64,000 nt of DNA from positions 84,134,001 through 84,198,000 of the forward strand of contig OZ024741.1 in NCBI GenBank assembly GCA_964016885.1, read 5' to 3'. Position 1 is the first letter of the stretch; the number at the start of each line of letters is the position of its first letter. The notes below the pieces were generated by a model. The model made no database searches and had not been told where the DNA came from. It worked only from the letters and a program-made list of their open reading frames with translations. The translations under genes and the position numbers were made by a program. Of this stretch, positions 3,555 to 53,970 are shown piece after piece. This DNA comes from Eledone cirrhosa. Its lineage: Eukaryota.

Positions 3555-3610
3555 ATTATTCTGATGAAATGACAGTAAATAATAACATTGAAATATTGAA
3601 TGTCTGCATA
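3555..3610 (+). ncRNA. Atypical hammerhead-like motif in Naiad pLTR
   Basis: CTGATGA-aatg...catt-GAAA; possible stem III ATAT/ATGT with GUC; stem I weak. Confidence 0.5.
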
Positions 3611-3879
3611 ACTAAAAGTTTGTAGATAGCAGCTGTTTTAGGTTATGTAACTGTTATAGAAACACGTGTCAATAAATTCCTTTCAACTAAACTGTATCCA
3701 TTCAAATCTTTCTATTTTTCTCCGGATTACTTTTGGAACTACAACTGGAACCGTCGAGCAAACTCTACGTGAGCTGATAATCTACTGTGTGTAATATTTA
3801 TATTACAACACAACGGAAAATACTGTATATTTACCTCCTGTAAAGTCGAGCAACCCATACAGCAAACGCAACCACAACA

Positions 3880-6201
3880 ATGGAAAAGCACTACCTGGAT
3901 ATGTCACTCAAAAACATACCAACCCAAGGTAGAAAGGAATATTTATTGAGTATGATTAAAAAAACTAAAGAATTCATTCGACGTGTCAGGTGGAAAACGC
4001 TCCACTATGATAGAAGCCGTATGAACTCAACATTAGAAAGTGGTGTAAACAACAAATTCGGTTTTAGGACTTGTAAAAACCCACCCACCAACCCACTATT
4101 AGATGCACTTGAGCAGGACCTTATGAACTTAATCCTTAAAATTAAATTCAAAGGACGCAACACCAACAGCAAATTACAGAAAGATATAAAAAAACTACTG
4201 GACGACCTTAAAAACACCAAAGGAATTGTAGTAAAAGCGGACAAAACATCAAACCTGTACACTATGGATTGCACTACATACAACAACTTCATTCGAAAAG
4301 AATTACATAAAAAATATAGAAAAACGAGTGAAGTAACCCTTAAGCACATCAATGATGAGGCATGCGAAATAGTGAAAAATCTCGGAATCGAAGATAGGAC
4401 AGGACCACTCTTACCGGCGGTACCCACCTTCAATCTTAAGGACCACAAGGTAAACTTTGATAATGACCCTAAAATTAGATTAATCTGCCCCTCTAAATCA
4501 GATATAGGTAAAATAAGCAAATATATCTTAGATAGAATCATCCCCCAAATTAAGGCTAAGGTTAACATTAAACACTGGGGGAAGACCCAAGAAGCAATAA
4601 GATGGTTTAATAGCATTAGCAATAAGAATAAATCTAAGTTTATCCAGTTTGATATCGATGAATATTACTCATCGATATCACCTGAAACTTTGAATAGAGC
4701 CATTAAGTTTGCTAAGGATAACTCTGACCTTACAAACGATGAAATTAAGATTATATTAGAAGCTAGGAAAACTATAGTCAAATTTGAGAACAGTTATTGG
4801 GTACGTAAAGATAGACCCTCTAACTTTGACATAACAATGGGCTCTAACGATTCGGCGGAAATAACTGATATTGTGGGGTTATTTATCGCCTTTAGACTCC
4901 AGGAAAAATTCAGCAATCTCCACGGCGGAATATACCGCGACGATGTTCTCCTCCTAGCTAAAAACCTTAATAACCAAAAACTAGAAAAACTACGCAAAGA
5001 TATAAGAAAACTACTACTCGAAATAGGACTAACTATAACATATGAATACAACCTTAAAGTAGTTAACTTCCTGGATGTCACACTCAATTTAAACTCTGGT
5101 TTGATTAAACCGTTTCATAAATTGAATGAAAATCTCAAATACGTAAATGTTGGGTCTAATCACCCCATCTCTATAATTAAATCTATCCCTAAAAATATTT
5201 CCCTTAGAATCTCGGGTCTATCTTCTAACATACAAGTATTTAAGGGACACGCCGAGTACTACGATAACGCCCTTAGTAAAGCAGGCTACCTCAACAAAAT
5301 AGAGTACATAGATGGGAACAATCAAAACACCCAAAATAAATCCCACATAGGTAGATATAATAACACAACACCAAACCACACTTACTCCCATAGTATGCAC
5401 ACCAGTAAACCAACAAACAAAACTAATAGAAAGCGATGCAAAGAGTACTTATGGTATAACCCCGAATACAATAGTTCCATTAGTACAAATTTACCAGTAC
5501 TCTTCTTTAAAATAATTAAAAGACATTTTCCCACATCACACAAATACCACAAAATCCTAAACCCTACCACTATAAGACTGTCATACTCTACAGCGTTAAA
5601 CCTTGAACAACACATAAAAAAGATCAATACTAGAAGGTTAAACGAAAACACTAAGAACTTAAGTACAAAGAATACAAAAAAAACAGTAGACAATACACTA
5701 CAGAACATAAATAAACCACACCTAAGTTCGTCCGCAATACTACTCCAGAGAAAACCCAACGTACACAACTGTAACTGCACCTATCCTGACAACTGCCCCC
5801 TCGGCAATAACTGCCTGGAAAAAAATATTATTTATAAGTGTACCATTAAATCCGGAGGCAACGAGTGGTATTACGTGGGATCAACGGCAACATCGTTTAA
5901 ATCTCGATTGTATAGGCATTCTTACTCAATAAAACACCAGAGCCAAAGAAATGTAACAACTTTAGCAGAAGAAGCTTGGACGCTCAGGGATAGCGATCAA
6001 AAGTTTACCCTAAAATGGGAACAATTAGCTAAAACCCAAAGCTTTTCCAGGAGCCAAAATTTCTGCAAATTGTGTAATCTTGAGATTTATTACATAATCA
6101 CACACAAGAAGAAACTGCTGAATAACAGAATTGAACGAACATTATTCTGCCGTCACAGAACTAAAACCCTTTTTTCCCACTACAAGCCGAATATTACATA
6201 A
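3880..6201 (+). CDS. Second copy of Naiad RT+GIY-YIG ORF, 773 aa
   Basis: Translation appears identical to 284-2605. Confidence 0.95.
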   Translation: MEKHYLDMSLKNIPTQGRKEYLLSMIKKTKEFIRRVRWKTLHYDRSRMNSTLESGVNNKFGFRTCKNPPTNPLLDALEQDLMNLILKIKFKGRNTNSKLQKDIKKLLDDLKNTKGIVVKADKTSNLYTMDCTTYNNFIRKELHKKYRKTSEVTLKHINDEACEIVKNLGIEDRTGPLLPAVPTFNLKDHKVNFDNDPKIRLICPSKSDIGKISKYILDRIIPQIKAKVNIKHWGKTQEAIRWFNSISNKNKSKFIQFDIDEYYSSISPETLNRAIKFAKDNSDLTNDEIKIILEARKTIVKFENSYWVRKDRPSNFDITMGSNDSAEITDIVGLFIAFRLQEKFSNLHGGIYRDDVLLLAKNLNNQKLEKLRKDIRKLLLEIGLTITYEYNLKVVNFLDVTLNLNSGLIKPFHKLNENLKYVNVGSNHPISIIKSIPKNISLRISGLSSNIQVFKGHAEYYDNALSKAGYLNKIEYIDGNNQNTQNKSHIGRYNNTTPNHTYSHSMHTSKPTNKTNRKRCKEYLWYNPEYNSSISTNLPVLFFKIIKRHFPTSHKYHKILNPTTIRLSYSTALNLEQHIKKINTRRLNENTKNLSTKNTKKTVDNTLQNINKPHLSSSAILLQRKPNVHNCNCTYPDNCPLGNNCLEKNIIYKCTIKSGGNEWYYVGSTATSFKSRLYRHSYSIKHQSQRNVTTLAEEAWTLRDSDQKFTLKWEQLAKTQSFSRSQNFCKLCNLEIYYIITHKKKLLNNRIERTLFCRHRTKTLFSHYKPNIT

Positions 6202-7108: not shown

Positions 7109-7164
7109 ATTATTCTGATGAAATGACAGTAAATAATAACATTGAAATATTGAATGTCTGCATA
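7109..7164 (+). ncRNA. Atypical hammerhead-like motif in terminal Naiad pLTR
   Basis: Same sequence as 3555-3610. Confidence 0.5.
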
Positions 7165-7329
7165 ACTAAAAGTTTGTAGATAGCAGCTGTTTTAGGTTAT
7201 GTAACTGTTATAGAAACACGTGTCAATAAATTCCTTTCAACTAAACTGTATCCATTCAAATCTTTCTATATATAAATATATATTTATTAATATAACAGAT
7301 TAAAGTTTAAGCAATTTTATTATTATTAC

Positions 7330-7395
<66 letters not shown>

Positions 7396-7399
<4 letters not shown>

Positions 7400-8077
7400 G
7401 GATTTAATGCTCTGAAATAGTGATATATATGTGTAAGAAAACATAGAATATTCGAAAATATTCTGTATGTTTATGATAAACATTTTGAAGACCTAATCGC
7501 TATAGAATAGAATACGTCACGTATTACAATTTGAGATTCTCGATAAAAGCAAGGGAAGTAACCTACGCGTTTCATTCTTATTTGAAATCATCAGGATTAC
7601 ATATCCAATGCTTTTATCGAGAATGACACAGCTAGAGACTTATAGAATACTTAGCTGTGTACAGGAACTGGTTTGAAAGAACGGTTGCCGGTCCGGCAGA
7701 AATTAGAATTTGGATTTAATGCTCTGAAATAGCGATATATATGTGAAGAAAACATAGAATATTCGAAAATATTCTGTATGTTTATAATAAACATTTTGAA
7801 GACCTAATCGCTATAGAATAGAATACGTCACGTATTACAATTTGAGATTCTCGATAAAAGCAAGGGAAGTAACCTACGCGATTCATTCTTATTTGAAATC
7901 ATCAGGTTACATATCCAATGCTTTTATCGAGAATGACACAGCTAGAGACTTATAGAATACTTAGCTGTGTACAGGAACTGGTTTGAAAGAGCGGTTGCCG
8001 GTCCGGCAGAAATTAGAATTTGGATGTAATGCTCTGAAATAGCGATATATATGTGAAGAAAACAGAATATTCGAAAA
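7396..8077 (-). mobile_element. Retrozyme-like family A, about 2.2 tandem units of ~310 bp
   Basis: Homologous to the 37.5-41.3 kb array; (TA)n on the left. Hammerheads at 7558-7600 (intact) and 7869-7910 (GAAA changed to GAAU). Confidence 0.88.
7558..7600 (-). ncRNA. Type I hammerhead ribozyme (family A)
   Basis: Minus strand: gtaatc CTGATGA t ttc aaataa gaa t GAAACGCGTA ggttac. Stem I 6 bp, palindromic stem III ACGCGT, GUA site. Confidence 0.9.
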
Positions 8078-8110
8078 TGTTTTCTTCACATAAAATACAC
8101 ACCGATATAC

Positions 8111-10065: not shown

Positions 10066-10594
10066 TAATACTTTATATTCTGCTCCAAATTATTTGTTGA
10101 GCAAAATTTGCCAAATTACTACTGTGACTGATAGAAGTGGCTAGGCTCTGTCTTAATAGCACCCCCACTCCAAGCTGGTTAACCTCAGTGTCACATGATT
10201 AATTCTTTTGAATTTGCCATTTGACCAAGAAGGCAGCGAATTTTTCAGTGGCCTGGAATCTAGACCCGCTCGCTTTTTTCGCTTTTTTCCATCCAGTGAA
10301 TTATTGTTATATAAGTTTCCAGTGTCCCCCATTGCCTGGCAGCTTAGCTGAGAATAGACTCCCTGATAACGTAACGCTTTTCTACAGGTATTACATAACT
10401 GTATTTATCCCCTTACAGAAACTAATTAGTTGGAGTGAAATTTTAGTAAGTAAGTCAATTTTCATAACTTTATTATTTACGTCTTTCATATAATTGTTCT
10501 GCATTCCCCTGCATAGAACTACAAAGTTACTAAGACAAAACATATATATCTGCTAGCATAGGTATGCATCTGTATACATATGTCGGTAGATATA

Positions 10595-10835: not shown

Positions 10836-11010
<175 letters not shown>

Positions 11011-11756
11011 CAAATATAAATTACCGAGAATCGTATTTCAGCTCAGGAATTAACGAAAATCAACGTCCGATATGTGTGGCAAGCGCTCGATGATTCAAGT
11101 GAATCAGAGCTACAACATACGTTAAGGGCAAAACACAATGAGATGATGGTTAAACAGATCATCAGCATAGCCAAAACAAACGACCAAGTATTTCGGGTTA
11201 AACAATAAATATATATGTGTTGATATTTTACCCGGACCCTGGACTGATGGTAAAATCCAGTATTTGGTTTCTGCGACTCCAAAATCAGGTACTGTCCGCC
11301 TACATAAAGAATGTTGGGCTTCTGGTAAGATGATTGAACAAGGAAGCCGTGTTATCAACGGGTTTTTGCTCCAAAATGCTATACATAAGTGTGGCTATTA
11401 CTGACTCCACGTGGAGTTCAGCAAGGGAGGCAACACCTATATTAGGCGAATGATTCAGTTGTGTATAATATTGCGAGAATGCAAAATATCACAAATCGAA
11501 TAAAGCTCTCGACAGAATGGTTAAATATAACAGAGCTATTCAACAGTCAATAGAAGCAACTAAAAAATCAATAAAATTAACTGCTCAATAGCTAGACTTT
11601 ATATTTTTTTTTTAGTACATGTTGGTTGTATACCAACACCTCAGTATGCAGATTGGAGCACTCGACGAAGTGCGCAGGTTGGTTTGGTTACTCCGGAGTA
11701 ATGTAAAATAAAATAAAATAAATAAGTTAAATGTTTAAAATTTAACTTCGTTTATT

Positions 11757-11811
11757 ACTGCTATATATATTTCGGTGACAGCCATCTTTGGCTGTGACCT
11801 CTTCAGGCAAT
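11757..11811 (-). ncRNA. Type I hammerhead ribozyme in a PLE pLTR relic (about 11690-12380)
   Basis: Minus strand: attgc CTGAAGA ggtcacagcca aaga tggctgtcacc GAAATATATATA gcagt. Confidence 0.85.
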
Positions 11812-12530
11812 CCGAATTAGTGTGGTATAGACAAGTACATATGTTTTGAGGTGTATAACTTTGTCAATACTCTGATATGCCCAGTTCCTGGTTGGGTTGT
11901 TATTTCACTGAGGAACTGGAATCATATGAATTCAAACAAACGAATTTCAGTGTCAAAGGGCCTCTTCTCCTCTCATTGGTCAGTTGTTAGAACATTCCTC
12001 ATTCAAAAGTCTATAGAAATTCGTTCTGAGGCAAGCCAATCTGTAGTTATTGTTAGATATATCTGACCTCAATTCTTGTGTTGGTAGTGTTGTTATTGTT
12101 GGAGTTAGCTGAAAGAAATTGATAAAGTGGTAGAAGGAATAAGATGGTAAAGAAACAAAATAACAAAAAAATGTCAAACTTCCCATTGGTCAGTTTTGAG
12201 AGCATTCCTCAGTCCGAAGTCTATAGAAATTATTTCTAGGGTGAGGCTCCCTGTAAAGTTTAACACATTGTTTAGCTCTCGTTTTTAACTATTGAGCACT
12301 TTGCCTGTATCATTTCTGATTTTTGCGTTTCGCTTCGCTTTTCCTGCCCGCCGAAAATGCGATTCTCACTGAATCTTTATTTGTATATATATATATACAA
12401 ATAAAGATTATATATATATTTTTTTTAAGTAAGACTCCAGTTGCATTTTCGATTTCATCTTTTTTTCTTTATACTTTCACACGTGTAGGACACTTCGGTT
12501 ATTTTACATTTTGTAAAAAATAAACGTCAA

Positions 12531-12613
<83 letters not shown>

Positions 12614-14796: not shown

Positions 14797-15195
14797 ATAT
14801 AATCACATATATATTTATATATATATAATCACATATATATATATATATATTAGAAAGTGAGGTTTTTTTTAACCAAAATGAAAAATAACCGAGGTGTCCT
14901 ACACGAGTGAAAGTATAAAGAAAAAAAGATGAAATCGAAAATGCAACTGAAGTCTTATTTAAAAAAAATATATATATATTTATTTGGTTCCTTTACCGGT
15001 TTCGCAGTTCTTCTGCTTTTCAAAAGTACAGTTGAGATGGAGGGTCTGTGGTTTTTCTCACAACAGATGTATATCACATATATATATGTGATCATATATA
15101 TATATATATGTGATTATATATATATATATGTGATTATATATATATGTACATATATATATATGTGCGATTATATATATATATATATATATATATAA

Positions 15196-15911: not shown

Positions 15912-15962
15912 AGATTCCTGATGATTTCTAATGAATGAAACAGTTCTAGTCCTGTAGAATCT
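15912..15962 (+). ncRNA. Type I hammerhead ribozyme in a solo PLE pLTR (about 15450-16045)
   Basis: agattc CTGATGA t ttc taat gaa t GAA ACAG ttctagtc CTGT A gaatct; followed about 80 nt later by (TA)n. Confidence 0.88.
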
Positions 15963-16044
15963 CATCTATATTAAAACTGTTATACTCTGCTATGTATTGA
16001 GTACCTTACTTACTGTGGTTACCTCCGATTCAACCCGGAATAAC

Positions 16045-16098
<54 letters not shown>

Positions 16099-16099
16099 T

Positions 16100-16130
<31 letters not shown>

Positions 16131-16496
16131 ATAATAATAAATTTGAAGACTAAAATCCAAAGAGTGCTCGATATGGATAAATATATATCAAATATATAAG
16201 AACCGTAGAGCAAATATTTATTAAAATAACAGATTAAAGTTTAAGCAAAATCGCTGCTTTCACCCTTAATGGGATCTTCTGAAACTAACAAAGTACATCT
16301 GTAAACGCAGAAGTGGATATTTCAAAAAACGCTGCAACCGGAGGAAGACGGAAAGACGATAATTTGGTTCGTGGAAACGTTCCCTTCACAAAACATACAG
16401 GTAATATATACTTACCTATGCAAATAAGCAATGGTATAAACATAACATATACTTAGCTACCACATCAAGACGTAAAATATCCACGTATAGATCGTA

Positions 16497-17111
16497 CTAT
16501 CCGTTAGGGTATAATGAGGGGCTGTAATACAGGAAAGCTTTGTGCAACTTATGTTTACAAGCCGAAATTGCCTCAGATATTTTGTTTAAGATGTGGTCTG
16601 TGGCGTAGAGTATTTCCAGGGCCTCAACGGCGCAGAGGTCACATGGTCTTTTATTTCCGTTATACGATCTAGCCCTAGCTAGGATCTCACAGTGTAACTC
16701 ATATTGGGTGTCGTTGTCTTTTAGACTCCAGATATAAGCTGAAAGTGACGTCATATTCCTTCTTAGAGGGTAACGAAAAGAATGGGTATGCATGTAAAGA
16801 CGCTGCTTGAATCTATTGGCGGTTAACCCTATGTAGGCCCTACGGGACGTGGGTGTATCAACCTTACATTTATAGACAATGTTACTAGAGAGGCATTTCC
16901 CGGATAGGATGCAATGATCCCGATTCCTACAATTACATTTAGTACTAACTACAGGGTTGCCCGTGTTCCTACGGCTAGGTAGTTTAGCTAAATTTGAAGC
17001 TGTGATGTTATGTGCAAGGTTAGGAGTTGTAGAGTAAGAAATTTTAATAGTATTTCTATTAAAAATGTTACTATATTTATGTGTAGCGGGAAAATGTTTC
17101 GTAATATCCAC
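16497..17111 (-). pseudogene. 5'-truncated Naiad-type GIY-YIG endonuclease region (family distinct from 284-2605)
   Basis: KHFP..HKY..IFN..TIKISYSTT; CNC...C.L.G.C; IVYKC; YIGLT; CDLC; CKH. Aligns with the C-terminus of the 773-aa ORF; lies between (TA)n. Confidence 0.88.
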
Positions 17112-17212
17112 TTCTGCGTTTACAGATTGACTTTGTTAGTTTCAGAAGATCCCGTTAAGGGTGAAAGCAGCGATTCTTTGATTGAACTTTAATCTGTTAT
17201 TTTAATAAATAA

Positions 17213-17426
<214 letters not shown>

Positions 17427-18124: not shown

Positions 18125-18155
<31 letters not shown>

Positions 18156-18184
18156 CCCAATTTCTTATATATATATGTATATAT

Positions 18185-18294
18185 AAACGGAAAAAATGAA
18201 ACGAAATTTCATTTCCCACTCTTAGTACGGCTGTTACTTAAATATAAGTATATACACGTACATACATATATGTATACAGACGTACAGTAGAATG

Positions 18295-18351: not shown

Positions 18352-18450
18352 TAGATATATATATATATATAAAAGGAATTGTGGTAAGGAAACAGATGGA
18401 CAATAACGCGCCAGAGTACTCAATACTTAAGGCAGTAGAGTGGGAAATAG

Positions 18451-18714
<264 letters not shown>

Positions 18715-19022: not shown

Positions 19023-19389
<367 letters not shown>

Positions 19390-20380
19390 AAAATGTTCTT
19401 TTTTATAATAAAAAAAACGAGATGTCCTACATCGATAATGCAAGTGGAGTCTTTTTAAGAATATTTATTTGTTTCCGTTATCGGTTTCACAGTCCTTATG
19501 CTTTATAAAGGTAGAATTGAGCTTTGTGGATTTTCTCACATCTGGTGCGAGTAAGGAGATCATATATATTGAAATACACACGGGTCCATGTGTATGGACA
19601 TGCACATGTAGATTTAAACACAATCCCAGCAATACAGTCATGTGTATTTCAATATATATGATCACCTTTTTTTTTATTATAAAATAATACACTCTTATGT
19701 GAAACAATAACTTTGAAACAATTTAGTAAATGCACAATAATTACTTTTTTCTCAATATAAGCAATTTTTAGAATTCCTACAAAGTAGCTCAAAACTAATA
19801 TTATAATTAACATGTAATAATAGAAATATTCCAACATAATTTTGAAATTATCTATAAAATAAAATAATATAACAAAAATGAATGGGAACCTTCGAGAAAA
19901 ACAACAAAAATTAGACATAAGTAAATTTGTTGAAAATGTAACTCATAAAAATGAAAATACTGTTGGATTTTTAAAAAAAATATATATATATATACAAAAT
20001 ACCAATAATATTTGTGAATATTAAAATCAATGAGTGTTACTAATAATATGATATGCAAGAGTAGGCTTTAGTATTATCTTAAGTGAAGGAAGAGTAGATA
20101 TGAATTAGAGATAGAATAATAATAATAACACGTGTCAATTTAGAGATGTTAAAATCCGTTAATAAAGTAGAATTGTAATTGTTTGATAGAATGCCAAAAC
20201 TGAAGCAAGATATATTTCTTTTCATTTCAGTATGAATTTTTCGGAGAAAATGATCCAGTTAAATGATAAAACAAATAAAATAATGAGCGAGAATTTGGAA
20301 GAAAGATTAAGAGGGAGAAAGAGAGAGTTAGAGAGAGAGAGCTGGGGAGATAGACAGATAGAGATAGATATATAGATAGA

Positions 20381-22497: not shown

Positions 22498-22632
22498 TTA
22501 TTTGTGTATGTGTGTATTTCTTTGTGTATGTGTGTATTTATTGCTTCTTCCAATTATTTAATGTGGGAATTTGGTGATCAAATAATTTCTGGTTGAAGAA
22601 GAGATTTTCGAGGCAACAACAACAATAATAAG

Positions 22633-23372
22633 GATTTCTAGTATAGGCACAAGGCAAGGAATTTGGAGGGAGGTGAAAGTCAATTAACTCGACCCCAGTA
22701 CGTTACTGGTGCTTTATTTTATGGATCCAGTAAGGACGAAAGGCAAATTCAACCTCGGTGGGATTTGAACTCAGACCGTAAAGGATTGTAACTATATGTC
22801 TCATGTCATGTTGTCCTACGTTCTATCAATACTGCCAATAATAATAATAATTGTTTCTATTTTTGGCACAAGGCCAGCAATTATCCAAGTGCATTACTGG
22901 TACTTCATTTTATCGACCCCCTTAAGGATGAAAGGCAAAGTTAACCTCGGCGGGATTTGAGCTCAGATCGTAAGGAGGCGTAACTCTATGCTGCAAAGCA
23001 TGGCGTCCGGCCCTCTACCGATTCTGCCAATCCACCGCCAATAATAATTGTTTCTACTTTTGGCACAAGACTAGCAATTATCCAGGGAATTACTGGTACT
23101 TTATTTTATCGACCCCGTAAGGATGAAAGCAAAGTTAACTGCGGCGGGATTTGAACTCAGATTGGCAATAATAATAATGGATTCTTATATAGGAACAAGG
23201 CCAGCAATTAAATCGAAGCCAGTGCATTACTAGTGCTTTATTTTATCGACCCCTTAAGGATGAAATGCAATGCTAACCTCGGTGGGATTTGAACTCAGAA
23301 CGTAAAAGGAAACAACTCGTTTTTGCAAAGCATGGTGCCTGACTCTCTACCGATACTGTGATCCACCGCCCT
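22633..23372 (-). mobile_element. Four head-to-tail tRNA-derived SINEs (about 22633-22838, 22851-23040, 23048-23167 partial, 23178-23372)
   Basis: B-box gagttcaaatccc; central gcctttcatcc...ggggtcgataaaa...taccag (Meta-domain-like); tail ccttgtgcc..tagaaa + (TTA)n. Confidence 0.85.
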
Positions 23373-25100: not shown

Positions 25101-26459
25101 CTTTTATTCACGTAATTTAAATAGACCAATATCTTTTCAGATTGTTTGCGGTCGTTGCTTATAGTCTTTCGCCTGGGATCGTTTCAGATAACATTTCATT
25201 ACAGTTTTATTCAATTCAATCATCAATTTGGTTCTTGCCTCGTACCTTCTTCTTCCAACACCAGCAGTATTTGGTGTGACAACCGGATCTCTACTGAAGG
25301 GCCAGTGAGCACTTGGCGGCTGAGAGTCCTTCGCATGAAGGTTCAGCCTACTTTTAACAGTTACTTTAGATATTTAAACACTCATAAACAGGATTAGTGA
25401 ATTTAATGTTGAACCAACACGAAGGTTTTTACTTGACGTTATCACTTGTCTCGGCTAATTTGTGACAATTATTATCATTATTACCATTAAAGTTCTTTGT
25501 GCTGTGAAAATATTTTCTTAACGTGAGCCATACGTGGCTTATGATGAAATCCTATTAATACTAATATAAATAATAATAATGGTTTCTGATTTAGCACAAG
25601 GCCAACAATTTTGGGGGAGGGAAAAGTCGATTAAATCAAGCCCCCCCCCCCCCCCCCCCCCCCAATGTTTGGTCTTATGCCTAAATGAGAAACCAGTATT
25701 ATCATTAATGTTATTTTATGTCTGTACTGAAAGATGAATTAATTTTTCTCGCGAAATCTTTCCTTCCTGTGTTTAATATGATTTGAAGCTATTGACATAC
25801 TGCAATTATTGCTGATGTTCATATTTTTTCCCCTTCTACACCTTCATCAAGTAATCCTCCTTGTCATCAACTTACTACTAACATACTTTTGATATTTTGG
25901 ATTTGGCTTTCATATAAAACTAATCTTCTATCTAAGAGTTTATTTTGTAATCATTTAGCTACACGGTTTCATATGATGTAAACAAAAGTTTATATGTCAA
26001 CGCGTATTAAAAATGTTCACTACGTATCAGCACCGATCCTGTACATGAAAGAAAATAAACAAAACAGTATTGCTGTTTTTTACAAGCAAGGTAAGCTTAA
26101 AGTAAATTGCTCCAACACACGTTTATCGATTACAAAGAGGTAGGTGAACAAGTTGGTCATATAAGACCCTAGGAACGGTAGAAACGATAGAATCGCTTGT
26201 GTGAGATGAACTCACACTTGCCTTGTTTAAGTGTGAGTTTGAATCCCAAATGGGAAAATAACCATATTGTCCATTTGTAAGGGCTTCTATGCCTCACTTG
26301 TTTGCGTGAGCATGACACATTATTTCACATGCGATTTATCCGTGAGCATGACACATTATTTCTCGTTTCTGCTGTCTATTATGCTGGGGAAAAATTGTTG
26401 TTACAGTTATTCAAAGGGGAATCGAAGACATCCTCTCAATGAATCATGCGCAGTGCACA

Positions 26460-36142: not shown

Positions 36143-36152
36143 CACATATATA

Positions 36153-36225
36153 TCAAATTTAATATAGAAATGGTTTCTACATAACTAGAACTGTTTCATT
36201 CGAAAGAAATCATGAGGGTTTTGCA
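36153..36225 (-). ncRNA. Decayed hammerhead related to the 15.9-kb pLTR
   Basis: CTCATGA tttc tttc gaat GAAACAGttctagttATGTA; downstream ctatattaaa shared with 15966-15975. Confidence 0.55.
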
Positions 36226-37479
36226 CTCTACTAAAGTATTGTGCACCTCACTTACTGAGGCTAAGCCCGATTGAACCCGGTACTCACACACACGCGCACA
36301 CACACACGCACACACACACACACATACACATACACACACACATACATACACACACACACACGCGCATATATATATGTATATATATATATTTGAAAATGGA
36401 AGTAAGTTTCTATATAAAACAGTTATTATACAGAAAATGTGACATTAGAAATAGCACGGAAAATATATTTAACGGTCTGTTTTTCTTTTTTTTTTTCCTT
36501 TCTTTGATTCGTGAAAATGACATTATTAAAAGATGAGAAGGAGAATTTTTTTTAAAAGAATGTTGTAATGGGTATAAAGTATATAAAGTATAACCGGTTT
36601 TGATGTATTAGTAAAATTCATCTTATCAAATGTGGAGTATTACAATTAAAAATAATTAAGAATTAAGATCTAAAAATTAGAGATTTAAAATTAAGTGTTG
36701 AGGTAAGTTATTTTCATCTTCCTTGTTAAGAAGGAGACTGGAAAAGTTGTGTGTACAGAGAGAGGTGTGTAGTCATGATAGTAGCGGCAGCAGTGTTGGT
36801 AGGTGTGTTTTTTCACATAGAACAAAATTGTTTTTAGGGACAAAGGAAATATTCTGTTCTTGTTGGTTTCATAAAGCTGCTTTTCACTATGTATTAAGCG
36901 TCCTTATAAGACACGCTACATTTTCTTTAATTATATATATATATAAATGGAATAGAATGAAACGAAATTTCATGTCTCACTCTTAGTACGGCACTGACTC
37001 AAATGTAAGTATGTATGTATACGTACATACATATATGTATACAGACGTACAGCAGCATGTATATATATATATATGGACGTATCAGTTTACCGAACATTTA
37101 TTATAATGTTCGCTTTGTTTGTTTGAAAACAAACGGACAGCCTGATTTACGCCGTACAGTGTTCAGGCAACCACGTCACCTTTTTGTTCAACACTGACAC
37201 AGGAACGATGTACTAGTTTCAAGCTTGTTGGCTATCGTCAGCACCGTATACCTTTCTGCCAGATGGTTGAACGTTCGAAAGTATATACTTTCCATATGAA
37301 AATTAACGGCTGAGCAGCCTAATTTGCATGTCGAGTGAGTTCAGTCGGCCAGGCGCACCGAAAACGATAAATGGAATAGAATGAAACGAAATTTCATTTC
37401 TCACTCTTATACAGCATTTACTCAAATGTAAGTATGTATGTATACGTACATACATATATGTATACAGACGTACAGTAGC

Positions 37480-37542
<63 letters not shown>

Positions 37543-37546
<4 letters not shown>

Positions 37547-40500
37547 TATAGACATAGAATATTCGAAAATATTCTGTATGTTTATAATAAACATTTTGAA
37601 GACCTAATCGCTATAGAATAGAATACGTCACGTATTACAATTAGATTCTCGATAAAAGCAAGGGAAGTAATCTACGCGTTTCATTCTTATTAGAAATCTT
37701 CAGGACTACATATCCAGTGCTTTTATCGAGAATGACACAGCTAGAGACTTATAGAATACTTAGCTGTGTACAGAAACTGGTTTGAAAGAGCGGTTGCCGG
37801 TCCGGCAGAAATTAGAAATTGGAATAAATGCTCTGAAATAGCGATATATATGTGAATATAGACATAGAATATTCGAAAATATTCTGTATGTTTATAATAA
37901 ACATTTTGAAGACCTAATCGCTATAGAATAGTACACAGCTAAGTATTCTATAAGTCTCTAGCTGTGTCATTCTCGATAAAAGCACTGGATATGTAGTCCT
38001 GAAGATTTCTAATAAGAATGAAACGCGTAGATTACTTCCCTTGCTTTTATCGAGAATCTAATTGTAATACGTGACGTATTCTATTCTATAGCGATTAGGT
38101 CTTCAAAATGTTTATTATAAACATACAGAATATTTTCGAATATTCTATGTCTATATTCACATATATATCGCTATTTCAGAGCATTTATTCCAATTTCTAA
38201 TTTCTGCCGGACCGGCAACCGCTCTTTCAAACCAGTTTCTGTACACAGCTAAGTATTCTATAAGTCTCTAGCTGTGTCATTCTCGATAAAAGCACTGGAT
38301 ATGTAGTCCTGAAGATTTCTAATAAGAATGAAACGCGTAGATTACTTCCCTTGCTTTTATCGAGAATCTAATTGTAATACGTGACGTATTCTATTCTATA
38401 GCGATTAGGTCTTCAAAATGTTTATTATAAACATACAGAATATTTTCGAATATTCTATGTCTATATTCACATATATATCGCTATTTCAGAGCATTTATTC
38501 CAATTTCTAATTTCTGCCGGACCGGCAACCGCTCTTTCAAACCAGTTTCTGTACACAGCTAAGTATTCTATAAGTCTCTAGCTGTGTCATTCTCGATAAA
38601 AGCACTGGATATGTAGTCCTGAAGATTTCTAATAAGAATGAAACGCGTAGATTACTTCCCTTGCTTTTATCGAGAATCTAATTGTAATACGTGACGTATT
38701 CTATTCTATAGCGATTAGGTCTTCAAAATGTTTATTATAAACATACAGAATATTTTCGAATATTCTATGTCTATATTCACATATATATCGCTATTTCAGA
38801 GCATTTATTCCAATTTCTAATTTCTGCCGGACCGGCAACCGCTCTTTCAAACCAGTTTCTGTACACAGCTAAGTATTCTATAAGTCTCTCTAGCTGTGTC
38901 ATTCTCGATAAAAGCACTGGATATGTAGTCCTGAAGATTTCTAATAAGAATGAAACGCGTAGATTACTTCCCTTGCTTTTATCGAGAATCTAATTGTAAT
39001 ACGTGACGTATTCTATTCTATAGCGATTAGGTCTTCAAAATGTTTATTATAAACATACAGAATATTTTCGAATATTCTATGTCTATATTCACATATATAT
39101 CGCTATTTCAGAGCATTTATTCCAATTTCTAATTTCTGCCGGACCGGCAACCGCTCTTTCAAACCAGTTTCTGTACACAGCTAAGTATTCTATAAGTCTC
39201 TAGCTGTGTCATTCTCGATAAAAGCACTGGATATGTAGTCCTGAAGATTTCTAATAAGAATGAAACGCGTAGATTACTTCCCTTGCTTTTATCGAGAATC
39301 TAATTGTAATACGTGACGTATTCTATTCTATAGCGATTAGGTCTTCAAAATGTTTATTATAAACATACAGAATATTTTCGAATATTCTATGTCTATATTC
39401 ACATATATATCGCTATTTCAGAGCATTTATTCCAATTTCTAACTTCTGCCGGACCGGCAACCGCTCTTTCAAACCAGTTTCTGTACACAGCTAAGTATTC
39501 TATAAGTCTCTAGCTGTGTCATTCTCGATAAAAGCACTGGATATGTAGTCCTGAAGATTTCTAATAAGAATGAAACGCGTAGATTACTTCCCTTGCTTTT
39601 ATCGAGAATCTAATTGTAATACGTGACGTATTCTATTCTATAGCGATTAGGTCTTCAAAATGTTTATTATAAACATACAGAATATTTTCGAATATTCTAT
39701 GTCTATATTCACATATATATCGCTATTTCAGAGCATTTATTCCAATTTCTAATTTCTGCCGGACCGGCAACCGCTCTTTCAAACCAGTTTCTTACACAGC
39801 TAAGTATTCTATAAGTCTCTAGCTGTGTCATTCTCGATAAAAGCACTGGATATGTAGTCCTGAAGATTTCTAATAAGAATGAAACGCGTAGATTACTTCC
39901 CTTGCTTTTATCGAGAATCTAATTGTAATACGTGACGTATTCTATTCTATAGCGATTAGGTCTTCAAAATGTTTATTATAAACATACAGAATATTTTCGA
40001 ATATTCTATGTCTATATTCACATATATATCGCTATTTCAGAGCATTTATTCCAATTTCTAATTTCTGCCGGACCGGCAACCGCTCTTTCAAACCAGTTTC
40101 TGTACACAGCTAAGTATTCTATAAGTCTCTAGCTGTGTCATTCTCGATAAAAGCACTGGATATGTAGTCCTGAAGATTTCTAATAAGAATGAAACGCGTA
40201 GATTACTTCCCTTGCTTTTATCGAGAATCTAATTGTAATACGTGACGTATTCTATTCTATAGCGATTAGGTCTTCAAAATGTTTATTATAAACATACAGA
40301 ATATTTTCGAATATTCTATGTCTATATTCACATATATATCGCTATTTCAGAGCATTTATTCCAATTTCTAATTTCTGCCGGACCGGCAACCGCTCTTTCA
40401 AACCAGTTTCTGTACACAGCTAAGTATTCTATAAGTCTCTAGCTGTGTCATTCTCGATAAAAGCACTGGATATGTAGTCCTGAAGATTTCTAATAAGAAT

Positions 40501-41301
40501 GAAACGCGTAGATTACTTCCCTTGCTTTTATCGAGAATCTAATTGTAATACGTGACGTATTCTATTCTATAGCGATTAGGTCTTCAAAATGTTTATTATA
40601 AACATACAGAATATTTTCGAATATTCTATGTCTATATTCACATATATATCGCTATTTCAGAGCATTTATTCCAATTTCTAATTTCTGCCGGACCGGCAAC
40701 CGCTCTTTCAAACCAGTTTCTGTTCACAGCTAAGTATTCTATAAGTCTCTAGCTGTGTCATTCTCGATAAAAGCACTGGATATGTAGTCCTGAAGATTTC
40801 TAATAAGAATGAAACGCGTAGATTACTTCCCTTGCTTTTATCGAGAATCTAATTGTAATACGTGACGTATTCTATTCTATAGCGATTAGGTCTTCAAAAT
40901 GTTTATTATAAACATACAGAATATTTTCGAATATTCTATGTCTATATTCACATATATATCGCTATTTCAGAGCATTTATTCCAACTTCTAATTTCTGCCG
41001 GACCGGCAACCGCTCTTTCAAACCAGTTTCTGTACACAGCTAAGTATTCTATAAGTCTCTAGCTGTGTCATTCTCGATAAAAGCACTGGATATGTGGTCC
41101 TGAAGATTTCTAATAAGAATGAAACGCGTAGATTACTTCCCTTGCTTTTATCGAGAATCTAATTGTAATACGTGACGTATTCTATTCTATAGCGATTAGG
41201 TCTTCAAAATGTTTATTATAAACATACAGAATATTTTCGAATATTCTATGTCTATATTCACATATATATCGCTATTTCAGAGCATTTATTCCAATTTCTA
41301 A
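37543..41301. mobile_element. Retrozyme-like family A array: 388-bp inverted arm plus 10.9 direct 310-bp units
   Basis: gtacacagct recurs at 37931, 38241, 38551, 38861, 39173 ... 41032; one hammerhead per unit; (TA)n on both sides. Confidence 0.93.
37993..38035 (+). ncRNA. Type I hammerhead (family A, first of 11 plus-strand copies; inverted copy 37667-37709)
   Basis: gtagtc CTGAAGA t ttc taataa gaa t GAAACGCGTA gattac; stem I extended by 15 bp ttctcgataaaagca/tgcttttatcgagaa. Confidence 0.92.
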
Positions 41302-41745
41302 TATATATATATATATACATACAGGCACACATATATATATGCACGTATCAGTTTACCGAACATTTATTATAATGTTCGCTTTGTTCGTTTGTAAACAAAC
41401 GGGCAGCCTGATTTACGCCGTACAGTGTTCAGGCAACCACGTAACCTTTTTGTTCAACACTGACACAGGAACGATGTACTAGTTTCAAGCTTGTTAGCTA
41501 TCGTCAGCACCGTATACCTTTCTGCCAGATGGTTGAACGTTCGAAAGTATATACTTTCCTTATGAAAATTAACGGCTGAGCAGCCTAATTTGCATGTCGA
41601 GTGAGTTCAGTCGGCCAGGCGCACCGAAAACGATAAATGGAATAGAATGAAACGAAATTTCATTTCTCACTCTTATACAGCACTTACTCAAATGTAAGTA
41701 TGTATGTATACGTACATACATATATGTATACAGACGTACAGTAGC

Positions 41746-41786
<41 letters not shown>

Positions 41787-42268
41787 CAGGCACACATATA
41801 TATATGCACGTATCAGTTTACCGAACAGTTATTATAATGTTCGCTTTGTTCGTTTGTAAACAAACGGACAGCCTGATTTACGCCGTACGGTGTTCAGGCA
41901 ACCACGTAACCTTTTTGTTCAACACTGACACAGGAACGATGTACTAGTTTCAAGCTTGTTAGCTATCGTCAGCACCGTATACCTTTCTGCCAGATGGTTG
42001 AACGTTCGAAAGTATATACTTTCCTTATGAAAATTAACGGTTGAACAGCCTAATTTGCATATCGAGTTAGTTCAGTTGGCCAGGCGCACCGAAAACGATA
42101 AATGGAATAGAATGAAACTTCCTGTGTCAGTGTTGAACAAAAAGATGACGTGGTTGCCTGAACACTGTACGGCCTAAATCAGGCTGTCCGTTTGTTTACA
42201 GACGAACAAAGCGAGCATTATAATAAATGTTCGGTAAACTGATACGTGCATATATATATGTGTGCCTG

Positions 42269-42386
<118 letters not shown>

Positions 42387-42627
42387 TATACATGCTACTG
42401 TACGTCTGTATACATATATGTATATACGTATACATACATACTTACATTTGAGTAAGTGCCGTACTAAGAGTGAGAAATGAAATCTCGTTTCATTCTATTC
42501 CATTTATCGTTTTCGGTGCGCCTGGCCGACTGAACTCACACGATATGCAAATTAGGCTGCTCAGCCGTTAATTTTCATACGGAAAGTATATACTTTCGAA
42601 CGTTCAACCATCTGGCAGAAAGGTATA

Positions 42628-42668
42628 CGGTGCTGACGATAGCTAACAAGCTTGAAACTAGTACATCG
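42628..42668 (+). ncRNA. Type I hammerhead (family B representative)
   Basis: cggtg CTGACGA t agct aaca agct t GAAACTAGTA catcg; palindromic stem III ACTAGT. Confidence 0.92.
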
Positions 42669-42826
42669 TTCCTGTGTCAGTGTTGAACAAAAAGGTGACG
42701 TGGTTGCCTAAACACTGTACGGCGTAAATCAGGCTGTCCGTTTGTTTACAAACGAACAAAGCGAACATTATAATAAATGTTCGGTAAACTGATACGTGCA
42801 TATATATATGTGTGCCTGTATGTATA

Positions 42827-42883
<57 letters not shown>

Positions 42884-43308
42884 GCTACTATACGTCTGTA
42901 TACATATATGTATGTACGTATACATACATACTTACATTTGAGTAAGTGCCGTACTAAGAGTGAGAAATGAAATTTCGTTTCATTCTATTCCATTTATCGT
43001 TTTCGGTGAGCCTGGCCGACTGAACTCAGTCGATATGCAAATTAGGCTGCTCAGCCGTTAATTTTCATAAGGAAAGTATATACTTTCGAACGTTCAACCA
43101 TCTGGCAGAAAGGTATACGGTGCTGACGATAGCTAACAAGCTTGAAACTAGTACATCGTTCCTGTGTCAGTGTTGAACAAAAAGGTGACGTGGTTGCCTG
43201 AACACTGTACGGCGTAAATCAGGTTGTCCGTTTGTTTACAAACGTACAAAACGAACATTATAATAAATGTTCGGTAAACTGATACGTGCATATATATATG
43301 TGTGCCTG

Positions 43309-43409
<101 letters not shown>

Positions 43410-43836
43410 GCTACTGTACGTGTGTATACATATATGTATGTACGTATACATACATACTTACATTTGAGTAAGTGCCGTACTAAGAGTGAGAAATGAAATC
43501 TCGTTTCATTCTATTCCATTTATCGTTTTCGGTGCGCCTGGCCGACTGAACTCACTCGATATGCAAATTAGGCTGCTCAGCCGTTAATTTTCATAAGGAA
43601 AGTATATACTTTCGAACGTTCAACCATCTGGCAGAAAGGTATACGGTGCTGACGATAGCTAACAAGTTTGAAACTAGTACATCGTTCCTGTGTCAGTGTT
43701 GAACAAAAAGGTCGCGTGGTTGCCTGAACACTCTACGGCGTAAATCAGGCTGTCCGTTTGTTTACAAACGAACAAAGCCAACATTATAATAAATGTACGG
43801 TAAACTGATACGTGCATATATATATATGTGTGCCTG

Positions 43837-43883
<47 letters not shown>

Positions 43884-44317
43884 GCTACTGTAGGTCTGTA
43901 CATATATATGTATGTACGTATACATACATACTTACATTTGAGTAAGTGCCGTCCTAAGAGTGAGAAATGAAATTTCGTTTCATTCTATTCCATTTATCGT
44001 TTTCGGTGCGCCTGGCCGACTGAACTCACTCGATATGCAAATTAGGCTGCTCAGCCGTTAATATTCATAAGGAAGTATATACTTTCGAACGTTCAACCAT
44101 CTGGCAGAAAGGTATACGGTGCTGACGATAGCTAACAAACTTGAAACTAGTACATCGTTCCTGTGTCAGTGTTGAACAAAAAGGTGACGTGGTTGCCTGA
44201 ACACTGCACGGCGTAAATCAGGATGTCCGTTTGTTTACTGACGAACAAAGCGAACATTATAATAAATGTTCGGTAAACTGATACGTGCATATATATATAT
44301 GTGTGCCTGTATGTATA

Positions 44318-44351
<34 letters not shown>

Positions 44352-44429
44352 CATGCTACTATACGTCTGTATACATATATGTATGTACGTATACATACAT
44401 ACTTACATATATATATATATATATATACA

Positions 44430-45879: not shown

Positions 45880-48800
45880 TTATCCTTCTTCCGAAGTGAT
45901 ATCGGAAGAAGTGACCAGACTATGGCCAGAGAGGAAGTTGCTTGACCTCAGACCTTTCAATCGTGTCCACCAAACAACCTCTTTCAACATGGCTATTACG
46001 CACAGAAATACCGCCTTTGCTTCCATTGTGAAGAGGGGAGGCGGCTTGATTGTCATCACGGACTCGGCGGTCAATCGAATCGGCGCCACCCGCAACAGCA
46101 GTCGTTCGGCGTAGCCCCACAGATCAGCCACGCTCGGACATTGCACCAATGCGTGCGCAACGGTTTCTTCGTGACGCACGCATCTAGGGCAAATCTTTTT
46201 CGAGGGATCCCTGCCCGGGCGCCCGTGTCTGTAGAGCCTCTCTCGAACGGGTAGAGCCCTCCGGTAGCACTGCCAGGCTAGTGACTTCTGGAAGTTGTCC
46301 ATTGGTCTCGGGCCGAAAGTCCTACCGAACATGCTGGCCAGTTCGTCCTCTTCCATGTCCAGCGACTCTCCAAGGGTGTCATCGCCCCTGCTAGCCACCA
46401 GCCCTCTATAGAATAATGAGGTGGATTCTCCACCGATGCCCTGGCCCGTTTGCCAGAGAGCCCTGAGCGCCTGGGCACACTCAGTGTGCCAGTCTCCCAG
46501 TTTTCCGGATCTTTGCTTGACCCAGGACTGCAGCTCGGTGAGCGAGACGAGTCTCGGAAAGGCTCGTTTCACGAACGGAGCCCACACCGGTTGACCAGTG
46601 AGGAATACCTGTAGGTGCCGTAGCTTTAATGCGTGCCTACTCATCATCAACCACGGCATCCTCAGCCCTCCTTTCGAAGGTTGTTGGCAGCAGATGGATC
46701 TTCTCACCATAGGAGGGCGCTTCTTCCAAAGAAATTGGAAGAGCATGCGTTCCATGGTGGTGAGTGTTTCCTTAGGGCAAGGCACGACAGTCAGGCGGTA
46801 GTAAGTGACGGACGCTATGTAAATGTTCGCCACCTCCGCCCGGCCTTTTAGGTACAGCTTACACTTGGCCCATTTCTGGGTTAGTGCAAACACCTTGTTC
46901 GTAACCTCGTCCCAGTTATTTTCCACCTGGAGGTCCGGTCCAAACCAGACCCCAAGCAACTTCACCGGGCCCTCCGTCCAGTGTCCGACGACACCGTCTG
47001 GAGGCATCGGTCTGCCTCTCCACGTTCTGAGTTGCAGCCCGATGGATTTTTCCCGGTTAAGTTTCGCTCCTGACAACCTTTCGAAATCCTCCAGTAGGGT
47101 ACCGATCGCCTCGATCTCCGAGTCGGTCGATACCATTACTGTTACGTCATCGGCGTAAGCCGACACCGCTTTGCTCAATCCTGGTTCCAGGGGGATACCC
47201 TGCAACAATTCCAACTTCCTCAGTAAAGGCTTCAGAGTCAATACGTACAGAAGGGAGGAGAGAGGGCACCCCTGTCGAATGGATCGTGTGATTTCGAACG
47301 GATTCGAAAGGTAGCCGTTCACCTTGATCCTAGAACAGATGTGGTTGCTATGTAAGGCAGTGATCCAGCCTCTGAAAACAGGACCGAACCCAGCCGCCGC
47401 TAGCACCGCATCCAGGTAACCATGGTCGACCCTATCGAAGGCCTTAGACTGATCCAAGTTGATCAGGGCCCCACCGAAGCCGGGTTTGTTGCCAACCCTC
47501 TCTATGATGTATCGCATGAGGTGGAGGTTATCGTGAATGGACCTGGATTGGATAGCACATGTCTGCGCATCTCCCACCAGGCCACCCACGACAAGCACCA
47601 ACCTCTTTGCTAACACCTTGGCCAAAATCTTTAACTCTGTGTTTAGCAGGGTTATGGGCCGAAAATTATTTATACTATCCCCTTGTTCTCGTCCTTCCTC
47701 ACCAGCGAGACTACGCCCTTGGCTACAAAACAAGGAATTCTCCCGTTCTGCTGCCAATTGCAGTAGACCGCTTCGAGGAGTTCGGAGAAGAAGACCGGCA
47801 TTGCTACATAAAGTTCGTAAGGTATACCATCGAGACCTGGAGATTTGCGTCTGCTGCATTGGCTCAGCGCATCCCCGATCTCATCAGCCGAGATTGGTCC
47901 CTCGCAGGACTCTGCCTCTTCGCTCGAGAGACGCAGCAGGCCGTCGAGGTATGGACCGAAATCCACGTCCCCGCCCGGACCCTCGCCTCCCCCGAATAAT
48001 CGGGTAAAGTGCCTTTGAAAGGCCTCGCACATCTGCTTAGGCTCCCGGATCACCCGTCCATCCTCGTCTTGCAAAGACCGGATGGTGGATCGATTTCCAC
48101 TCTTAACTTCTGTCACGCGGGCCCAGCCAACGGCTTTGGCCCCCTCATTACCTAGAGCACGTATTTTACTTCGAATGACGCAGCCTTCGTGCTTTGCATC
48201 GAAAAACTGGTTCAAGGCCGTCCTCGATGCCAGCACTCTGGCCACATCTTCGCTCTTGATTGCCTCTTCTAATTTACCTGTTAATTCTTTCTCGTTTCTA
48301 TTCCTATCGGCAGCTAACATCTTGCTATAACTTATTGCTTCTGTTCTAATCTCTCTTTTGAGAGATGCCCACCATCGGTTGTTGACGATTGCACCCGTCA
48401 ACCTCTCCTTAACTAATCTGCTAATCTGGTTTCTGTAAGTCTCTTTTGCCGGTAAAGACAGATTAAGTTTCCAGTAACTGGGACCCTGTTTATGTGTTTT
48501 CTCGAGATTGACTACGCAGGTCACTAATTTGTGGACAGTTTAATATGTCCCTATCCTTACTTCTAACTAAGAATCTATCTAAGTACGATCTAGATTGACC
48601 AGTGTGGTTCGTCCAATTCCAGGTTGGCACAGTTGGAAAATCTAGTCGATATCTATCGACTAAGTTAAAACGGTCGAGTAACCCTTTGAGGCTGTTACAC
48701 CCTCCTCTATTAGGACATGCTCCTGCATAGTCCCAACGTGCATCTAGGATGTCATTCCAATCCGCCGCTAGAAGCAGGGAACGCGACGTTCCCAGAAAAG

Positions 48801-49182
48801 TCTCCAAACGCTGGAAGAAGTCGGGCCGTTCAGCTCCTAAAGGGGAGTAGACGGCGACCAGTCTCAAGGCCGCACCTTCACTACTGCCAACGTCTAGCAC
48901 CAACAAACGACCCTCCGGGTCCGAGTGAACAACCTGTACGGCGAGACCCAGGTGTTTTTCCAGCAGTACGACAACCCCACCCCCACCTCCAGGTTGACAG
49001 AGAGATGCATGCACCTCAAAGTCATCGAAGGTAGGGGCCAGCTGCCGCACGACGCTGATCCGCGTCTCACAGATAACCATTACATTTATACCACGTGACC
49101 TGAGGTCATTTAGAAGCTTTGCTTGCTTCCAAGTTGAGCCCAGGCCACGTGCATTCAAAAATCCTACTTTTAACACATCCAT
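45880..49182 (-). pseudogene. Tx1-like ORF2 (APE endonuclease, RT, C-terminal CCHC), split over 3 frames
   Basis: LNARGL; ICET; EGRLL; RSYLDRF; YWKLN; KSPGLDG; RPITLLN; LDQSKAFDRV; RQGCPLS; YADD; CPRC...HALVQC. Confidence 0.92.
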
Positions 49183-49215
49183 GTGGGCGGCAAAGCCAAA
49201 GGAGAGTGTAGAGAC

Positions 49216-53623: not shown

Positions 53624-53830
<207 letters not shown>

Positions 53831-53859
53831 TATATGCATATATATATATATATCTACAT

Positions 53860-53942
<83 letters not shown>

Positions 53943-53970
53943 GCATATATATATGCATACATATATATAT

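Follow-up and report, generated by a model that had tools for sequence, protein, structure and literature searches.

Fixed 3' ends within (TA)n arrays appear to belong to Penelope-like elements (PLEs) of the Hydra clade and to their non-coding hammerhead relatives. Comparison of sequences suggests that these ends probably mark the site at which the Hydra reverse transcriptase (RT) starts, 5–11 nt 5' of a hairpin, and that neither the hexamer TTTCTA nor the ribozyme cut sets the site. What appears new is the twin hairpin; internal priming and (TA)n targeting have already been published.

The analysis covered a 64-kb window (the whole stretch of DNA under study), which is AT-rich, of animal type and dense with (TA)n arrays. 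The junction list compiled from this window holds 26 junctions in 11 families, and the labels H1, H2, C, D, E, G, J, K and N1 were coined in the present analysis. A second set, made of 26 Hydra-type PLE loci outside the window (L001–L026), was found with a 62-sequence alignment of H1 and 61 of the 120 homologues listed. These loci are filed under bacterial genomes; judging from the elements that they hold, they are most likely animal DNA carried along. As several loci come from each assembly and assemblies are few, the loci are not fully independent. A single-protein locus scan and a plasmid search gave no relatives. Rfam gave no gathering match anywhere in the window, where the weak matches listed (150 of 189) belong to microRNA or snoRNA models and fall on TA repeats; the 7 of the 26 outside loci that were searched gave no match either. 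Pfam gave no family for the PLE proteins of the window.

Hydra-clade elements and hammerhead repeats of the window

The element that ends at 7268, here named H1, had been labelled a Naiad in the preliminary description. The label is wrong: motif order, DKT and the hammerhead at 3561 and 7115 are those of the Hydra clade, and all the diagnostic motifs tested in its predicted protein assign H1 to that clade. Two ORF copies (284–2605 + and 3880–6201 +) form a tandem unit of about 3.6 kb and encode identical 773-aa Hydra-clade PLE proteins. By motifs, each is a single ORF with the RT before a C-terminal GIY-YIG-type nuclease, whose motif lies at position 664 of 773. The protein contains RWK, DKT (121), YRDD (352), CxCX5C, CxxC and CxH, and GxKF/Y is not conserved. 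A CxCX5C linker, with CxxC and CxH around conserved E and N residues, is present in both H1 and H2. Among the 120 homologues listed, RWK or RWR occurs in 106 and DKT in 113. A hammerhead-type core (7115–7158 + up to the predicted cut, also at 3561) was recognised in the pseudo-LTR by sequence pattern, with no Rfam match, and the element is inserted in (TA)n. The 3' end, TTTC|TAT (7263–7269 +), lies 108 nt past the predicted cut and overlaps (TA)n by 3 nt.

The available text of Craig et al. 2021 (PMC8557442) lists for the Hydra clade a C-terminal nuclease, RWK, DKT, CxCX5C, CxxC/CxH, a hammerhead and (TA)n insertion, and H1 has all these marks. The described Hydra families are mostly under 3 kb, whereas the H1 unit is about 3.6 kb and has a long, microsatellite-rich 3' region. 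Naiad, according to the same source, is alike in (TA)n targeting, in tandem and inverted structure and in its tail, but its nuclease is N-terminal, it has DKA and it lacks a canonical hammerhead. H1 shows none of these three features and Naiad is ruled out as its identity: the nuclease is C-terminal, DKT is found without DKA, and a hammerhead-type core is present.

H2, 33% identical to H1, is a 5'-truncated Hydra PLE with an inverted arm (16128–17216). It retains the nuclease half (16500–17135 −) and a hairpin (16164–16211 −), with its long end at 16128 and its short end at about 17211–17216. An inverted mini-copy of only 50 nt (7280–7329) holds both fixed ends of H2. The TA tract in which it lies (7267–7395) stacks three unrelated insertions: the H1 end, the mini-copy and an A array. 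A departure from the usual hammerhead core, CAGAAGA instead of CTGANGA, was observed in H2 (16128–16300), with both arms alike, and in a copy of family C (14851–15060).

Families A and B are built of non-coding units of 310 and 490 nt, respectively, repeated in tandem and each containing a single type I hammerhead; by these features we classify them as non-LTR retrozymes. Three A insertions were detected: one of about 2.2 monomers at 7396–8081 (−), with its main 3' end at 7396; one at 37544–41300, made of an array of 10.9 × 310 nt (37931–41300 +) and an inverted arm (37544–37931), with the main end at 41300 and a second end at 37544; and one at 63755–64000 (−), with its main end at 63755, which runs past the window edge. 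The three copies are 92–96% alike and their far flanks are unrelated. Family B has a 490-nt monomer with a hammerhead and an internal (TA)n, and is found as an insertion at 36946–44406, whose minus arm ends at 36946 and whose plus arm ends at 44406, and as a fragment at 18186–18294 (−) with the same end base as at 36946. The A insertion at 37544–41300 interrupts a B monomer at its internal (TA)n; as an array of about 11 A units plus an inverted arm sits there (37483–41317), B brings its own target site.

The hammerhead cores of A and B have an extra U on either side of stem II, as most Hydra hammerheads do. No significant local similarity was detected between A or B and H1 or H2, nor was a shared terminal sequence found between H1/H2 and A/B. 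Clear alignments between families are limited to A with D, in the hammerhead, and D with J, in the hairpin. Metazoan non-LTR retrozymes have been described, with PLEs as proposed helpers (Cervera and de la Pena 2020, PMC7229834; bioRxiv 10.64898/2026.07.22.740005), and A and B resemble them in their non-coding tandem units, type I hammerhead and low GC. In contrast with retrozymes in the published portions available, A and B show junctions of PLE type, with two fixed ends, an inverted 5' arm and a target in (TA)n; in B, an A insertion has entered the (TA)n inside the monomer. Hence, A and B offer a junction-level case for PLE mobilisation of retrozymes, of a kind not met in the accessible literature on these elements.

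Three copies of family C were found: 12420–12536 (+) and 14851–15062 (−, with a degenerate hammerhead-like core), both ending TTTCTA|ATAT, and 19388–19540 (−), ending TTTCT|TATA. The first two had been described as the arms of an inverted repeat, both with TTTCTA at the end. The hexamer is indeed there; however, these 'arms' are two 90% identical copies facing tail to tail, their arrays have the same interruptions, and they are probably not independent. The idea that the 12537/14850 pair forms a single inverted element was discarded, since the 3' ends point towards each other and the family has a third copy.

Families D, J and K, all seen as fragments, have a cis hairpin in common with autonomous Hydra elements. 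The D copy at 15918–16045 (+) has a hammerhead, a hairpin (15984–16004) and an end 41 nt past the hairpin; in a two-armed D copy (36143–36285) the arms join at the foot of the hairpin (36225–36246). J is two-armed (18372–18563; hairpin 18416–18441 −), with a long end at 18372, 44 nt past the hairpin, and a short end at 18563, 9 nt before the hairpin position. In K (12275–12383 +) the end lies 84 nt after the hairpin (12275–12299), and a counterpart (11005–11110 −) ends 78 nt past its own. Another hammerhead core (11806 −) lies in the K region (11660–11830), followed 71 nt downstream by a variant of the hairpin (11699 −). Additional hairpins were detected in a J-like relic (52414–52439 −), which has a degenerate hammerhead core and no TA array nearby, and in an unassigned element (10082–10106 +), where the hairpin starts 16 nt past a TA array; the latter hairpin is a training sequence of the covariance model used below.

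Other elements deserve brief mention. A second PLE type with a CX4CxxC linker, Neptune-like by motif only and with a broken frame, occupies 53625–60441 and ends 90 nt past a hammerhead-like core; the PLE pair at 53.6–60.4 kb is a 99.8% tandem duplicate that includes the TA flank, either a duplication or an assembly artefact. A 600-bp element is found twice (61634–62228 and 63044–63658, 92%) with TA arrays on both sides, and no hammerhead was found in it. A non-LTR retrotransposon (Pfam RVT_1 and zf-RVT) with upstream ORF pieces lies at 45880–50702 (−), split over several frames. Tandem repeats of 192 bp, a family that also has dispersed relatives, lie at 22600–23370 and 25569–25706. Between two TA tracts, an 11-nt island ending TTTCT (18155–18165) resembles A and C ends and is too short to assign.

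Two fixed ends per family and their overlap with (TA)n

The proposal that 3' termini are fixed was borne out. The A ends at 7396 (−), 63755 (−) and 41300 (+) differ by no more than 4 nt in their position on the monomer, a clustering with P about 0.001 if three ends were random in a 310-nt monomer; their distance past the predicted hammerhead cut, given previously as about 165 nt, is 168–170 nt. B ends on the same base at 18186 and 36946 (P about 0.0025). H2 has the same end base at 16128 and, in the 50-nt mini-copy, at 7329, and C also has fixed ends. Fixed ends recur on separate contigs outside the window.

The termini are real but not single. In every well-sampled family another fixed end lies 37–90 nt upstream of the main one: 37–41 nt in A, 59 in B, 90 in H2, 79 in J and 70 in D. 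Second ends are found on inverted arms, at 37544 (A), 44406 (B), about 17211 and 7284 (H2), 18563 (J) and about 36155 (D), and in all six two-armed insertions of the window (A, B, H2, H2-mini, J and D) the arms end at different sites. Family K is a possible exception, as both arms perhaps end at the same site. Outside the window, two two-armed insertions are asymmetric and one (L010) is symmetric.

Distances in other elements are also bimodal. Among 23 outside hammerheads, the core-to-array distance is 39–68 nt in 14, 112–127 nt in 8 and 155 nt in 1; published Hydra consensuses end 26–43 nt past stem I in 10 of 24 cases and 81–149 nt past it in 11 of 24, with 3 elsewhere. The paired ends are the known PLE 'tail', which is optional and found on one arm (PMC3846280 and PMC8557442, as far as available), and File S1 of the latter source includes four copies of Hydra-1_Obim, a cephalopod family, that end at the same site. 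The idea that ends are single-stranded in local folds gave inconsistent results, in that 3 of 7 clearly exceeded the segment mean.

Overlap with (TA)n amounts to 3, 1, 2, 1, 3, 2, 4 and 0 nt at eight window sites. This test was limited to sites with a known continuation, leaving out B 18186 (a misplaced row) and A 63755 (the same site as 7396). The mean is 2.0 nt versus about 1.0 nt expected (P = 0.04), so that priming by microhomology, as suggested in the preliminary description, finds a modest excess in its favour, but one of the eight sites has no overlap at all. Outside ends overlap by 3, 4, 8, 3, 0 and 0 nt. Overlap with (TA)n is common and not required.

A bulged hairpin next to the ends

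Downstream of the hammerhead there is a bulged hairpin with the pattern RCTC-stem-loop-TY-GAGY-RC, usually in two copies 62–68 nt apart. D, J, K and H2 carry it between the hammerhead and the end, and it is present in three of six published Hydra 3' ends or starts (Hydra-2_Amil, Hydra-1_Ajap and Hydra-2_Ajap). In six loci with uninterrupted copies, two hairpins with the 62–68 nt spacing are found ahead of the ORF start. The pattern was derived from the window and from the published Hydra ends, and then tested on the 26 outside loci. The strict version gives 7 matches in the window versus 0.32 expected, a comparison made post hoc. A relaxed version, fixed beforehand, gives 26 matches in the outside loci versus 5.8 expected, and 16 of the 26 lie within 140 nt past a hammerhead. 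When the hammerheads are counted instead, 15 of 37 outside the window have a hairpin within 140 nt; many of those lacking it may stop at the short end or belong to other PLE types.

Pairing in the stem was also examined. Three inner pairs are Watson–Crick in 0.89, 0.68 and 0.74 of 19 sequences, compared with 0.47, 0.24 and 0.32 after shuffling (P ≤ 2e-4); sequences were selected for this test by sequence only, with no pairing demanded, and the shuffle ignores relatedness. Compensatory changes are seen, and G-U pairs are tolerated on the sense strand. An alignment whose members were chosen for pairing has 96 of 96 cells paired, a count that is partly circular, the 19-sequence test being the fairer one. 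A covariance model built from 16 sequences detected 12 non-training matches in the outside loci and 3 in the window (E ≤ 0.01). Folding of whole segments gave no z-score below −2.

The hairpin is related to the ends in position. Nine of the 14 ends with a known continuation lie 5–11 nt before a hairpin, a placement open to 3–11% of positions per family. The nine represent eight families and comprise four long ends and five short or single ones; at three of them the overlap with (TA)n is 0. Two ends were dropped for poor alignment (10/14 and 11/14), one of which gave 3 nt and the other no hairpin match. The H1 end, with its TTTCTA, is among the nine: a variant hairpin (3719–3761 +, also 123–165) starts 6 nt past the end position of the last copy. 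This variant gives P = 0.00075 upon shuffling and P about 0.06 for its placing under a looser pattern; the covariance model does not detect it, and the minimum-energy fold is a different one.

At five of the 14 ends no significant hairpin was detected: two of A, two of B, and L010:6284, which has a different hammerhead type. With the covariance model, A reaches E values of 2–6 and B has no match on the sense strand. The best sense-strand matches of A fall just past each of its ends (41263 and 40679, E 3–6), and a possible hairpin vestige (41271–41285 +), which is not significant (E 2–3), lies 11 nt past its second end. A and B are likely copied in trans, by a cue that is either degenerate or different from the hairpin. 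Two structures of A may be positioning cues: a GC-rich hairpin (40687–40697) that starts 6–10 nt past the main end of each monomer, and a long UUCG-capped hairpin directly before the second end.

Some copies start at the hairpin right after a TA array (L004:2841–2912; 10066–10106 in the window), and in these copies the 5' junction and the short 3' end may use one site. Neither the hairpin nor its relation to the ends was found described in the portions of the literature searched, and Repbase entries or supplements could hold it. The text of Craig et al. examined (PMC8557442) does not mention the twin hairpin, yet it is visible in the consensus sequences of these authors.

Probable choice of the start site and its implications

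The reading that we consider probable, in which the fixed ends mark the start of the Hydra RT, can be outlined as follows. The template would be a tandem or circular RNA in which the hammerhead, hairpin 1, hairpin 2 and the ORF start succeed one another, an order that is seen in the DNA. The Hydra protein would bind a hairpin and, as PLE biochemistry and the flanks suggest, nick (TA)n; the free DNA end would then prime on the AU-rich stretch that immediately precedes the hairpin, where the observed overlap of 0–8 nt would fix the exact base. Short ends would result from hairpin 1 and long ends from hairpin 2, and the 62–68 nt between the two hairpins would correspond to the 'tail' of the Hydra clade. 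Priming on both target strands would produce two-armed insertions, a tandem or circular template would produce arrays such as the 10.9 units of A, and a related cue would allow A and B to be copied in trans. In the D copy at 36143–36285 the arms meet at the hairpin foot, which fits two primers on one RNA. Twin priming of L1 is a comparable case of two primers on one RNA.

A more specific version is evenly balanced in our judgement: the Hydra RT may dock on the repeated hairpin (GCUC/GAGC stem, 2-nt 3' bulge, RC after it) and use it as a ruler, two hairpins providing two starts and hence a tail, and non-coding elements may parasitise the system by keeping the hairpin.

The proposal of an internal, fixed start away from the ribozyme cut agrees with the junctions observed here and has an in vitro precedent in PAc, the anole Poseidon PLE (Frangieh et al. 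2024, PMC11167929). According to the available text of that study, PLE proteins nick AT-rich DNA and start internally, independently of hammerhead cleavage; PAc has two internal RT starts downstream of the hammerhead cut, which bound an optional tail, both DNA strands are primed, and RNA 3' of the start is required. Differences from PAc can also be noted. Its tail measures 30–40 bp, compared with the spacing of 37–90 nt found here, and its start lies in an AC-rich stem-loop and is homologous neither to the target nor to the cut DNA (PMC11167929, as available), whereas the presumed starts described here precede a repeated GCUC/GAGC hairpin and commonly overlap (TA)n by 0–8 nt.

The ends admit other explanations. 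One is that the RNA 3' end is made before the hairpin by a host nuclease, by a protein of the element or by termination, and that RT is then primed at that end. This explanation, which we regard as unlikely, predicts the same end geometry, and the ends of anole PLE RNA-seq reads coincide with RT start sites; however, when given longer templates in vitro, the anole enzyme initiates at internal sites (both in the part of PMC11167929 consulted), and only a template running on past the site can account for the 10.9-unit A array and the tandem H1 copies.

It is quite unlikely that the ends are generated at the DNA level, whether by a nuclease that recognises the pseudo-LTR or new cDNA and resolves it at the hairpin, or because the hairpin serves as a promoter or as an element of the 5' end. 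Craig et al. do attribute the tail to nuclease-mediated resolution (PMC8557442, available text), and some copies begin at hairpin 1 right after the TA array (L004:2885, and the start of the Hydra-1_Ajap consensus). The compensatory changes and the sense-strand G-U pairs fit an RNA structure instead, and the tail ends of the anole PLE are RT start sites in the accessible part of PMC11167929.

The preliminary description placed the signal in local sequence alone: nicked (TA)n would anneal to U/A-rich patches, with TTTC-W or TTTCTA preferred, and TTTCTA would be a cis signal common to helper and parasite. TTTCTA followed by a TA array is found exactly where it had been noted, at 7263, 12531, 14856 (−) and 41295, which are 4 of the 87 TTTCTA sequences of the window. 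It occurs at 4 of the 26 listed junctions and in 3 of the 11 families. Some hexamer would be common to 3 of 11 families with P = 0.005 and to 2 of 11 with P = 0.28. The C arms probably count once, and the third C copy lacks the final A. A looser motif, TTTC-W(0-4)|(TA)n, is present at 9 of 24 element ends versus 1 of 87 other array edges in the window, where copies are not independent. The sole TTTCTA in the 3.6 kb of H1 lies at its end, and in the published hammerhead flank of Penelope-8_HM a TTTCTA lies about 6 nt before the consensus end (PMC8557442, portion available). The last three observations, together with the overlap of 2.0 versus 1.0 nt, speak for a local signal.

We nonetheless consider a purely local signal very unlikely. 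In the 26 outside Hydra loci TTTCTA is found at none of 84 (TA)n boundaries, and enrichment at junctions had been set as the test of the proposal; none of 23 hammerhead-linked outside arrays (two of which are internal patches rather than ends) shows it, and none of six published Hydra consensuses, read by eye, terminates in it. TTTC itself is found at 4 of the 23 hammerhead-linked arrays, all of one of 16 hammerhead types. The B monomer has no TTTCTA, and only one of the three main A ends has it: the uninterrupted copy of the 7396 insertion reads AATTCTA at the end site, and the ends at 7396 and 63755 both stop before it. The other TTTCTA of A, in a hammerhead stem, is unused, as are most of the better TA patches found in other parts of the monomers. 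The register of TTTCTA relative to TA is in phase at 7268 and out of phase at the other three sites. Altogether, fixed ends, internal start and TA target, as first proposed, are largely known, and the TTTCTA signal does not hold.

That local duplication or assembly of one insertion explains the repeated ends is most improbable: C arms share interrupted arrays and the 53.6–60.4 kb PLE pair is duplicated together with its flank, but copies of A, B and H2, 85–97% alike with unrelated flanks, contradict it for these families, and so does the recurrence of fixed ends on separate outside contigs.

How a PLE RT chooses an internal start and an optional tail has been studied in vitro for one enzyme so far. 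With a covarying hairpin that predicts both starts in one clade, the question could be tested by a handful of point mutants, and H1 supplies an intact 773-aa protein and its RNA for the assay. The hairpin is also a marker for finding non-coding elements that depend on Hydra. If the reading is true, the ruler hairpin would be a portable, sequence-defined element that positions the template for a telomerase-related RT targeting (TA)n.
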